A DNA stretch of 64,000 nt from Escherichia phage WPEC6: sequence record PV763039.1; one strand, written 5' to 3'. Shown one piece after another: positions 28,977 through 30,261 of the stretch. The notes under the pieces were generated by a model. The model did not search any database, had not been told where the DNA came from, and was given only the letters and a program-made list of their open reading frames with translations. Numbering within the stretch: the stretch's first letter is position 1; each line of letters begins with the position of its first letter. Both the position numbers and the translations under genes were made by a program.

Positions 28977-29036
28977 TTGATCCCGTTTTATATTGTGTTA
29001 TAGTTATTGTGTAGGGCGGCAATGGTGCCGCGCCCC
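28977..29036 (+). promoter_or_regulatory. promoter plus conserved leader hairpin module (copy 1)
   Basis: TTGATC 28977-28982, 16 bp spacer, TATAGT 28999-29004, then GTAGGGCGGCAATGGTGCCGC leader hairpin 29011-29036. Confidence 0.5.
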
Positions 29037-29051
29037 TTTGAGGATGAAACC

Positions 29052-29336
29052 ATGAGTAAAGCTAACACCGTGCTAATGTTTTCCCTGGTTAATGATGCCG
29101 CTTACTTGTCCAACATGACGCAAGATGATAGCACATTAACGGCAACATTTACCGATGGACTCAACAGAGTGATCATCGTATCATTGAAAACGATTAGTAA
29201 AGGCTTTTACTCGTTGGCTTATCATTGGGTAACAGACAGCGACGAGACAAGCCAGGACTATAGCGCCCCGTTCCCTGAATCAATGGCACGGGAGATCATC
29301 GCCGCCGTTGTAAATGATGGTTTGTTTACTGCATAA
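29052..29336 (+). CDS. hypothetical protein
   Basis: in-frame ATG 29052 after RBS GAGGATGA (track ORF starts at 29007 inside the leader). Confidence 0.5.
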   Translation: MSKANTVLMFSLVNDAAYLSNMTQDDSTLTATFTDGLNRVIIVSLKTISKGFYSLAYHWVTDSDETSQDYSAPFPESMAREIIAAVVNDGLFTA

Positions 29337-29354
29337 AATAATTTAGAAAAAGGC

Positions 29355-29411
29355 TTGCAATCGTTTTGAGATAGTGTATATTTAATTCATAGGGCGGCGG
29401 GAATAGTTCCC
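29355..29411 (+). promoter_or_regulatory. promoter plus conserved leader hairpin module (copy 2)
   Basis: TTGCAA 29355-29360, 16 bp spacer, TATATT 29377-29382, then TAGGGCGGCGG and GGGAA-tag-TTCCC hairpin. Confidence 0.45.
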
Positions 29412-29434
29412 AAGGCAAACGAGAGGATTACACG

Positions 29435-29554
29435 ATGAGCAAGTACACAGTAGAATACACGGTAGAAAATCCGGCAGTATCCGAAGGTAAAAAGATGACA
29501 TTTGCCATCAGTATAATCGCTTTCGTTGTCACTATCTTATCAATCATCTTATAA
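29435..29554 (+). CDS. small peptide (39 aa) with hydrophobic C-terminal segment
   Basis: ATG after RBS GAGAGGA; translation MSKYTVEYTVENPAVSEGKKMTFAISIIAFVVTILSIIL. Confidence 0.4.
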   Translation: MSKYTVEYTVENPAVSEGKKMTFAISIIAFVVTILSIIL

Positions 29555-29564
29555 GGTGCATACC

Positions 29565-29726
29565 ATGAAAACAGCAGACATTATCAAAGAGATCGCCCTT
29601 GCCGCTGACGTTGAAATCGAGGAAATGATCGCGCTCAATCTTACAGAAAACGATCTGCGCAACTATGAAGCGGAAAGCGTGAAAGCAAGCGGCGCGGTCC
29701 TGGCATATAATCCAGCTAACAAATAA
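29565..29726 (+). CDS. small hypothetical protein (53 aa)
   Basis: in-frame ATG 29565 after RBS TAAGGTG (track ORF starts at 29526). Confidence 0.45.
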   Translation: MKTADIIKEIALAADVEIEEMIALNLTENDLRNYEAESVKASGAVLAYNPANK

Positions 29727-29727
29727 T

Positions 29728-29785
29728 TTGACAAGCTGAATCAACCTGATAAGATGTATCCCGTAGGGGCGACAAGCGCCCCGCC
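29728..29785 (+). promoter_or_regulatory. promoter plus conserved leader hairpin module (copy 3)
   Basis: TTGACA 29728-29733, 16 bp spacer, TAAGAT, then GTAGGGGCG-acaag-CGCCCC hairpin 29763-29785. Confidence 0.45.
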
Positions 29786-29803
29786 TAACAGAGAGATGAA
29801 ATC

Positions 29804-30082
29804 ATGACCATCGTTAAATTAACAACCGAAGAAATGAAAACAATGTTAACCACTAATTTACAAAATTGGAAAATTGGTGTTGACGTTGAAACAGTGTGCA
29901 AGTTGAACGACAAACTAACACCAGACGACATTGCAACGATCATTGATGCTAATTTCTATGATGTTTTACATGATGATTCCATTAGTTTTGAAATAGTGTT
30001 AGATAACACTTGGATCGATCCTGGTTTGTCGGTTTATGGTCGGCTTGCTTTCGATGCAATCCACAATGTTTATAATCGTTAA
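29804..30082 (+). CDS. hypothetical protein
   Basis: ORF track; RBS AGAGAGATGA upstream. Confidence 0.5.
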   Translation: MTIVKLTTEEMKTMLTTNLQNWKIGVDVETVCKLNDKLTPDDIATIIDANFYDVLHDDSISFEIVLDNTWIDPGLSVYGRLAFDAIHNVYNR

Positions 30083-30091
30083 GGGGATAGT

Positions 30092-30202
30092 ATGAATCCT
30101 AGAGATATGCAATCTTGGAAAGGGTACGACGATCTAAGCGCCTTGCGCAATAAATCAAGCCGTAACCTTAGACGGTTGGAAGCAAAGAAAAAGAAAAAAT
30201 AG
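30092..30202 (+). CDS. small basic-tailed peptide (36 aa, putative)
   Basis: ATG after RBS AAGGGGA; ends in KKKKK; below ORF-track cutoff. Confidence 0.3.
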   Translation: MNPRDMQSWKGYDDLSALRNKSSRNLRRLEAKKKKK

Positions 30203-30203
30203 T

Positions 30204-30261
30204 TTGACAAGCCTGTTTAATCTGGTAATATTCATCTTGTAGGGCGGCAATGGTGCCGCTC
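30204..30261 (+). promoter_or_regulatory. promoter plus conserved leader hairpin module (copy 4)
   Basis: TTGACA 30204-30209, 16 bp spacer, TAATAT 30226-30231, then GTAGGGCGGCAATGGTGCCGC (same 21-mer as copy 1). Confidence 0.5.

Follow-up and report, generated by a model that had tools for sequence, protein, structure and literature searches.

The segment at 28,977–30,261 of a 64,000-nucleotide stretch of DNA from Escherichia phage WPEC6 (sequence record PV763039.1; the whole stretch is referred to here as the window) carries very small open reading frames (ORFs) interspersed with a repeated element. An initial sequence-only reading had described this element as a module in which a promoter is followed by a conserved hairpin in the 5′ leader. 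The window consists of Phapecoctavirus DNA (phAPEC8-like, Stephanstirmvirinae), and the four modules are present at 28977, 29355, 29728 and 30204 as first reported, all on the plus strand. The features of the segment and of its two ends are as follows.

28885..28886, no strand: left non-canonical join, located by BLAST
28886..28980, plus strand: 3′ remnant of a phAPEC8_002 homologue, ~31 codons, without a start codon
28977..29004, plus strand: module 1 promoter, TTGATC, 16 nt, TGtTATAGT; from the promoter scan; orthologue at phAPEC8 522-549
29011..29034, plus strand: module 1 leader GUAGGGCGGCAAUGGUGCCGCGCC, predicted +1 at G29011; -14.1 kcal/mol, z -1.07
29052..29336, plus strand: 94-aa ORF, homologue of phAPEC8_003; phrog_10737, E 1.8e-38
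29355..29382, plus strand: module 2 promoter, TTGCAA, 16 nt, TATATT; from the promoter scan
29389..29416, plus strand: module 2 leader AUAGGGCGGC, predicted +1 at A29389; -7.8 kcal/mol, z -0.83
29435-29554, plus strand: 39-aa membrane ORF; phrog_10979
29565-29726, plus strand: 53-aa ORF; phrog_35944
29728..29755, plus strand: module 3 promoter, TTGACA, 16 nt, TGaTAAGAT; from the promoter scan
29763..29782, plus strand: module 3 leader GUAGGGGCGACAAGCGCCCC, predicted +1 at G29763; -12.7 kcal/mol, z -3.28
29804-30082, plus strand: 92-aa ORF; phrog_14947
30092-30202, plus strand: 36-aa ORF; phrog_31652
30204..30231, plus strand: module 4 promoter, TTGACA, 16 nt, TGgTAATAT; from the promoter scan
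30239..30263, plus strand: module 4 leader, predicted +1 at G30239; -15.1 kcal/mol, z -2.17
30264..30265, no strand: right non-canonical join, directly 3′ of the conserved ...GCCGCTCACA of hairpin 4
30268..30297, plus strand: native promoter-like site of the 56-aa gene, TTGCAA, 18 nt, TGaTAAGAT; outside the cassette family

All four promoters were listed by the promoter scan with the boxes and the 16-nt spacers that had been described, and TGn stands ahead of the -10 in modules 1, 3 and 4. The gap of about 7 nt reported between the -10 and the motif also held, a purine start lying 6–7 nt past the -10 and being followed by (G/A)TAGGG(C/G)G. The module 1 hairpin has 8 bp, an AUGG loop and three unpaired 5′ nt; in module 2, AUAGGGCGGC is followed by a weak GGGAA-UAG-UUCCC hairpin; module 3 has a 6-bp GC hairpin with the stem GGGGCG/CGCCCC; and the 10-bp hairpin of module 4 pairs the very first nucleotides (GU...AC). 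The description of these as GC hairpins without a U tract was upheld by a terminator scan (hairpin plus T run), which called none of the four, and the 3′ flanks of the four stems, CCCTTTGAGG, AAGGCAAACG, GCCTAACAGA and TCACATGCTT, contain no U tract. The stop codon of the phAPEC8_002 remnant overlaps the -35 of module 1. The small ORFs of 94, 39 and 53, 92 and 36, and 56 aa that had been assigned to successive modules exist, and each has a PHROG match, in families of unknown function; the last of them, however, is probably not natively driven by module 4 (see below).

There are exactly three occurrences of TAGGGCGGC in the 64 kb (29012, 29390 and 30240), all of them in modules, and module 3 carries TAGGGGCG at 29764. 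The 21-mer GTAGGGCGGCAATGGTGCCGC, said to be common to copies 1 and 4, was indeed found at 29011 and 30239, with none expected in shuffled sequence. A generic promoter scan of the region of the modules gave no enrichment (35 found, 33.6 expected from shuffles), and the 9-mer at up to one mismatch was not in excess (3, against a shuffle mean of 3.03). The non-random signal is the fixed joint arrangement together with the 21-mer, no single element being significant alone. Neither a window-wide promoter plus hairpin scan nor a covariance-model search found further copies in the 64 kb, and the motif proved to be confined to gene starts, rather than scattered at unrelated positions, in the motif search of the window, in phAPEC8 and in the covariance-model search.

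The four copies are part of a family of 14–17 per genome. In phAPEC8 (Phapecoctavirus) at least 17 cassettes stand in an array of tiny ORFs of ~9 kb, which spans 143.7 kb to the end of the record and continues to 4.5 kb, and one more precedes terC; all are on the coding strand. In phi92 (Justusliebigvirus) 14 cassettes adjoin the right terminal repeat, phiWec190 (Phapecoctavirus) has ~13 in 7 kb, and several were found in slur16 (Vequintavirus). The unrelated jumbo phage G17 (Asteriusvirus) has four in 2.8 kb, one of which matches phAPEC8 at 26 of 27 nt. Identical 21–27-mers stand between unrelated genes. Matches to the covariance model were restricted to early arrays and to the coding strand, and none was found in phAPEC8 between 50 and 100 kb, the structural half. 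The proposal that promoter and leader-hairpin modules are repeated ahead of tiny early genes is supported by 43 cassettes identified in five genomes.

The modules are interpreted as multi-copy early-gene expression cassettes which combine a sigma70 promoter with a 5′-terminal protective hairpin and also act as crossover points, and this interpretation is given a probability of about 0.6. A cassette consists, in order, of an A/T-rich tract, a near-consensus sigma70 promoter (TTGACA, 16–17 nt, TAnnnT, often with TGn), a purine start, the 5′-RUAGGGCGG hairpin, a short CA- or purine-rich spacer, a Shine-Dalgarno (SD) sequence and a tiny ORF with its ATG. The cassette promoters would be fired early in infection by the host RNA polymerase, starting at the R before UAGGG, and the nascent RNA would fold at once into a 5′-terminal hairpin. 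This hairpin would shield the short early mRNAs from 5′-end-dependent decay (RppH, RNase E entry or scanning) and insulate each cistron. Near-identical cassettes between unrelated ORFs would, in addition, serve as homologous crossover points at which early genes are added, deleted or swapped.

In E. coli, decay that depends on the 5′ end requires a short stretch of unpaired 5′ nucleotides: the triphosphate is converted by RppH, after which RNase E can bind to, or scan from, the resulting monophosphate end. Stem-loops at the 5′ terminus, as in ompA and the T7 phi10 leader, block this decay and stabilise the mRNA. Stabilisation and insulation of short early mRNAs would most likely be the role of the hairpin, and shielding from decay is preferred because the hairpin begins 0–5 nt from the predicted 5′ end. 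Among the functions suggested by the sequence-only reading, transcript stabilisation is favoured by the sequence evidence, and the variation described below speaks against a sequence-specific DNA operator.

Statistics on the promoter part were drawn from 43 cassette hits in the five genomes, retrieved with a regular expression that required RUAGGGCGG. TTGACA is the -35 in 31 of the 43; spacers of 16 nt (25 hits) and 17 nt (17 hits) account for 42 of them, and a purine following a pyrimidine is found 6–7 nt past the -10 in 42. The 12 nt upstream of the promoter are 76% A/T, and the spacer sequences differ among the hits. This pattern of conservation is that of real sigma70 promoters; promoter activity and the start site are predicted. 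The annotation of phAPEC8 lists no RNA polymerase gene, and the rV5 and CB7 papers conclude that such phages rely on the host polymerase. A promoter in the middle region of phAPEC8 has no leader hairpin.

The hairpin was examined in a set of 35 leaders from the window, phAPEC8, phi92 and G17. In minimum-energy folds it begins 0–5 nt from the predicted +1 in 32 of the 35, and there are 27 distinct arm pairs among them. While the basal stem GGGCGG/CCGCYC is nearly constant, the upper stems vary and each is self-complementary (CA/UG, GAA/UUC, GGA/UCC, GAAA/UUUC, UGG/CCA, GGGAA/UUCUC). Unrelated stems occupy the same position in module 3, in G17 (GGGGGAG/CUCCCCC) and as AGGCGGUGG/CCACCGCCU, with others in slur16, and leaders of unrelated sequence (G17_422, window module 3, and slur16 at 700, 1363 and 3388) keep a GC hairpin. 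When 3′ halves were exchanged between these related leaders, the native mean energy was -13.55 kcal/mol against -9.41 kcal/mol for the chimeras, and the native mean was attained in 0 of 2000 arm-swap permutations; the two arms of the hairpin co-vary. Alignment to a covariance model, built from the commonest hairpin type, gave 93.4% of cells paired compared with 88.7% in shuffles. A MAFFT alignment of the 35 leaders placed the 3′ arms out of register, and counting in the style of RNAalifold was not based on it. In the window itself, hairpins 3 and 4 clearly exceeded dinucleotide shuffles (z -3.28 and -2.17). The better evidence for selection on the hairpin lies in the self-complementary upper stems, the unrelated stems in the same place and the arm-swap energies. 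Leaders with a hairpin and an SD sequence but no promoter were also found in phAPEC8 (3542-3588, 3823-3879 and 2370-2450), and these point to a role at the RNA level rather than in initiation.

A comparison with promoter-early stem-loop (PeSL) cassettes, known from the T4-like phages RB49/phi1, T4/PST and KVP40/nt-1 (Arbiol et al. 2010, PMC2839356; Comeau et al. 2014, PMC4122927), bears on the proposed crossover role. In phiWec190 a hybrid cassette lies at an indel: its upstream DNA, -35 and spacer are those of the phAPEC8 promoter at 240 and its leader is that of module 1, while gene 002, which lies between promoter 240 and module 1 in phAPEC8, is absent from phiWec190. Elsewhere, homology between the two phages restarts exactly at TAGGGCGG (L011 4823, equivalent to phAPEC8 2403), and in WPEC2, an unreliable record, a cassette leader is fused directly to the 122-aa gene that borders the left join of the window. 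A 144-aa early protein of G17 (L007 1945-2379) is 64.7% identical to its counterpart in phiWec190 (L011 5300-5698), both genes standing behind a cassette, which is evidence that cassette-linked early genes move between unrelated coliphage families. The hybrid cassette supports a PeSL-like role in gene shuffling, although recombination at the cassette is itself a proposed mechanism.

Several points weigh against the interpretation as a whole. Hairpins 1 and 2 of the window do not surpass shuffled sequence (z -1.07 and -0.83), the second of them being weak. Five of the eight basal pairs are invariant on the covariance-model alignment and one pair is compensatory (C-G to G-C, 8 cells), so that classical covariation is thin; only a single compensatory pair emerges because the variable upper stems become insertions in the model. 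It was for this reason that the arm-swap permutation was used, a test which the relatedness of the copies confounds and inflates. The hybrid cassette is the only direct evidence for shuffling, the examples are few, and the breakpoints of gene cassettes must be intergenic in any case, so their coincidence with the cassettes proves little. A literature search found no transcriptome of these phages, and all +1 positions are predictions. Finally, RUAGGGCGG, which hardly varies, and the AAU(G/A)GU that recurs at the apex are conserved across leaders beyond the need of a purely structural 5′ cap, which hints at sequence-specific recognition.

This last point introduces an alternative, considered unlikely, in which RUAGGGCGG and the AAU(G/A)GU apex form a specific protein recognition site, acting as RNA or as a DNA operator. 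Candidates are a phage factor for shut-off or processing, one for antitermination and, from the host, an RNA-binding protein or RNase. RUAGRG at +1 to +6 is nearly invariant in Phapecoctavirus, Justusliebigvirus, Vequintavirus and Asteriusvirus despite differences in the stems, and the loops recur as AUGG, AUAG, UAG, UGG and GUGGU between A-U pairs. The invariance of the five basal pairs fits the same idea, as does the overlap of the element with the start site, a common place of repressor action. However, stem sequence, stem length and arm spacing vary within one genome, a poor fit to a single dimeric operator, and the promoter-less leader hairpins count against a purely initiation role. The conservation of RUAGGGCGG among the 43 hits is partly circular, as it was required by the regular expression, and near-identity may come from concerted evolution and horizontal transfer of cassettes. 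The element, moreover, matched no Rfam family (0 matches to the Rfam 15 covariance models at E up to 1, in window 28800-30500 on both strands) and has no host counterpart. Mimicry of a host sequence was rejected as an explanation: the 43-nt leader had no match in 5,426 E. coli genomes, and an 18-mer was at chance level, with 11 matches against ~17 expected in 185,579 bacterial genomes.

A stronger form of the recognition-site proposal, in which RUAGGGCGG and the apex would be a dedicated cis-regulatory RNA signal, exchanged among at least three unrelated large-coliphage lineages and read by a specific factor, is regarded as decidedly unlikely. If it were true, that factor would time, protect or shut off all immediate-early transcripts, and the signal would represent a new class of phage regulatory RNA.

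It is improbable that the hairpin itself is functionless and the ~85-bp cassette a repeat homogenised by recombination or gene conversion, with promoter and crossover roles only. Such a repeat could explain the identical 21–27-mers between unrelated genes, the existence of the hybrid cassette, the exchange of a cassette-linked gene across phage families and the constancy of the basal stem pairs. It does not readily explain why many different stems stay complementary at the same position, why leaders of unrelated sequence (those of G17_422, module 3 and slur16 listed above) still have a GC hairpin, or why promoter-less hairpin leaders persist.

The hairpin might instead be a PeSL-type attenuator or terminator, limiting read-through from upstream cassettes along the array, and this was judged quite improbable. 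PeSL stem-loops lowered lacZ expression in the manner of a strong terminator (Arbiol 2010, PMC2839356), tandem promoters are numerous along the array and canonical terminators scarce, and the annotators of phage ASO2A labelled these hairpins as rho-independent terminators. Yet the stems have no T/U run, CACAACAGAAGAGAG or a similar sequence following instead, and the hairpin is downstream of its own start site, where it would abort the transcript of its own cassette; genuine T-run terminators are present elsewhere in the same genomes, whereas the scan called none of the four modules. A simple intrinsic terminator was rejected as a candidate on the same grounds, the GC hairpins having no directly following U tract. 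That the 20-mer is a phage-specific promoter for a phage-encoded or phage-modified polymerase, as the GenBank annotation of JX561091 ('PHIRE promoter') would have it and as a loose likeness of TAGGG to the T7 start region, TATAGGGAGA, might suggest, is extremely improbable: nearly all copies have a full sigma70 promoter upstream at a constant spacing, so that the 20-mer falls within the transcribed leader, the annotated genes of phAPEC8 include no RNA polymerase, dependence on the host enzyme has been concluded for such phages, and PHIRE merely detects repeated 20-mers.

The database labels of the element are in conflict. In the phAPEC8 record (JX561091) these 20-mers bear the label 'putative promoter determined with PHIRE' at ten sites, which fall in one region spanning the record ends and include the equivalent of module 1, while vB_EcoM_ASO2A (MZ726793) annotates the same hairpins, at orthologous positions, as 'rho-independent terminator (WebGeSTer)'. 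In contrast to both labels, the element is placed here in the leader of a sigma70 transcript and has no U tract, so the two annotations appear to be conflicting mislabels of one element, a widespread early expression cassette in the reading preferred here. A search of the literature (for the motif, for phAPEC8 and PHIRE, and for PVP-SE1 and rV5 promoters with stem-loops) found no description of the hairpin element.

The likeness to PeSL cassettes is extensive. Both are short repeated intergenic units in which an A/T-rich tract precedes a near-consensus sigma70 promoter, with a G-run/C-run stem-loop, an SD sequence and an ATG; both are clustered in many copies in plastic regions ahead of small unknown ORFs (14–17 per genome here, dozens for PeSL); and both bound indels between relatives, with recombinant cassettes at the borders, here the hybrid of phiWec190. 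PeSL stem-loops, in contrast, lie within or overlap the promoter: in the interval from -35 to -10, across one of the boxes, ahead of the -35, or shortly before the start. In RB49 the stem (GGGGATC...GATCCCC) stands in the promoter spacer or over the -10, whereas here it stands in the leader, beginning at +1 to +5. The cassettes have no sequence similarity to the PeSLs of RB49, homology to which was ruled out by reading the RB49 intergenic regions. They occur in Stephanstirmvirinae, Vequintavirinae and Asteriusvirus, not in Straboviridae, and the proposed job of the hairpin is 5′ protection, not termination of upstream transcripts. The cassettes would therefore be PeSL-like with respect to shuffling without being members of the PeSL family, and the hairpin would have a different role at the RNA level. 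One cassette of the phAPEC8 array, at 146776-146852, departs from the other members in that its hairpin, TATAGCGCC...GGCGCTATA, stands across the -10, as in a classical PeSL.

The hairpin also resembles those of the ompA 5′ untranslated region and the T7 phi10 leader, each having a stable hairpin a few nt from the 5′ end (a predicted end in the present case) and an accessible ribosome-binding site after it. The resemblance is one of functional analogy and not of homology, and the cassettes differ in being a multi-copy repeat with a conserved RUAGGGCGG. Stabilising 5′-terminal stem-loops were reportedly described by Emory, Bouvet and Belasco in 1992, by Mackie in 1998, by Deana and colleagues in 2008 and by Richards and Belasco in 2019. 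The nut sites of lambda (boxA/boxB) and the put sites of HK022 are promoter-proximal RNA antitermination hairpins that head early transcripts, and GCGACAAGCGC of module 3 loosely recalls P22 boxB. The cassettes differ from nut and put in having a single short hairpin (put has two) with loops that vary between copies, in carrying no boxA consensus and in having no known N-like protein.

An IMG/VR search for the element returned only nine stretches, mostly contigs of ~150 kb. Three related GC-rich viral contigs in IMG/VR (36-61 kb; L012 609-626, L013 2890-2907 and L019 6234-6251) carry GGTAGGGCGGCAATGGTGCCGCC, or GGTAGGGCGGCAATGGTGCCGC(C), directly past the stop codon of a gene and with no sigma70 promoter ahead of it, which is probably a coincidence because the 18-mer is at chance frequency in large collections. 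Roughly 180 public genomes gave a match. Several of the matching records have titles that name phages of other hosts ('Campylobacter phage' A150/A110a/A140, 'Acinetobacter phage ABPW7', 'Klebsiella phage ZCKP1' and 'Pseudomonas phage'), yet their high-identity matches are to coliphage DNA of Phapecoctavirus or Justusliebigvirus, and the host labels or samples are probably wrong. A hydrophobic ORF of ~34 aa (MLEKIFTV...SSHGIG), unannotated in phAPEC8, is conserved behind the same TAGGGCGGGGCAATAAGGCAACGCC leader in four genera, and was located in phAPEC8 (L004 2448-2552), slur16 (L008 1927-2031), phiWec190 (L011 4867 onward) and L010 (~17170-17280); phAPEC8 has lost the promoter ahead of it, and a second hairpin stands there instead.

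The setting of the four modules was also compared with that in related phages. By BLAST the window is composed of three blocks, which in every well-assembled relative are widely separated or differ in orientation.

Window 1-28886: block 1, reverse complement of phAPEC8 7351-34975
Window 28886-30264: block 2, equivalent to phAPEC8 431-1812
Window 30264 onward: block 3, equivalent to phAPEC8 from ~61.7 kb (gene 144; 56-aa gene; spanins; terminase)

The left join lies 4–5 nt upstream of the ATG of a 122-aa minus-strand gene (28513-28881) and cuts the gene-002 homologue. Matches of 100% identity were found only in WPEC1, WPEC2 and WPEC4, three records of one study, which hold the same blocks in other orders and orientations. 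The 1,380-bp block has the same ends in WPEC2, with another orientation and other neighbours, and the left end of the terminase block has three different partners in the window, WPEC2 and WPEC4. WPEC2 (6131-9965 of L009, which is WPEC2 126500-136500) also contains tandem strings of ~150-bp fragments from scattered loci, some of which span phAPEC8 355-504 and 7273-7426 and so cover both window breakpoints uninterrupted. In appearance these strings are read-length debris or contigs joined end to end, and the sample may have contained mixed strains.

Both joins (28885/6 and 30264/5) are very probably assembly chimeras, in which case the position of the modules beside a minus-strand block and upstream of the terminase operon would be artificial, as would the divergent junction at which the sequence-only reading had placed them and its assignment of the 56/45-aa genes to module 4. 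Neither claim fits the relatives: in more than 100 of them the segment sits within a long co-directional early array, and the gene that follows module 4 is phAPEC8_008, of 94 aa. In relatives (ASO2A) a U-tract terminator and the promoter-like TTGCAA-N18-TGaTAAGAT, but no cassette, stand upstream of the 56-aa gene. A genuine divergent promoter region was considered and rejected, the natural divergent junction of phAPEC8 (57.7-58.2 kb) having no cassettes and the flanking joins looking artificial. It counts against the claim of an assembly artefact that it draws on sister records and not on the reads of the window's own source. False gene neighbourhoods like that of the window may arise because mixed-strain or short-read assemblies break at such repeats.

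Two further observations were made in the third block. Just upstream of the terminase gene, at window 30540-31167, two ORFs overlap, one of 130 aa with an N-terminal hydrophobic segment and one of 114 aa in which LMMTGC resembles a lipobox; by their sequence they look like an i-spanin/o-spanin pair. Immediately past the terminase gene, 33256-33330 holds a near-consensus TTGACA-17-TATTAT site, then an AT-containing hairpin of 14 bp (-17.7 kcal/mol) and, on the other strand at 33307-33280, a further promoter-like site. The region may act as a terminator/promoter node separating terminase from portal.

If the proposed cassette function is correct, the element would be a compact and portable early-expression unit, joining a strong promoter of host type to a 5′ protective hairpin and a ribosome-binding site, by means of which rV5-, phi92- and phAPEC8-like phages and some jumbo coliphages launch and trade their host-takeover genes. 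Many such phages are candidates for phage therapy. The proposal would extend the PeSL idea, that regulatory cassettes drive modular shuffling, beyond the T4-like phages and to another placement of the hairpin. It would also correct the clashing 'PHIRE promoter' and 'terminator' labels in the databases, and the cassette would provide a simple marker of the early region in these genomes.

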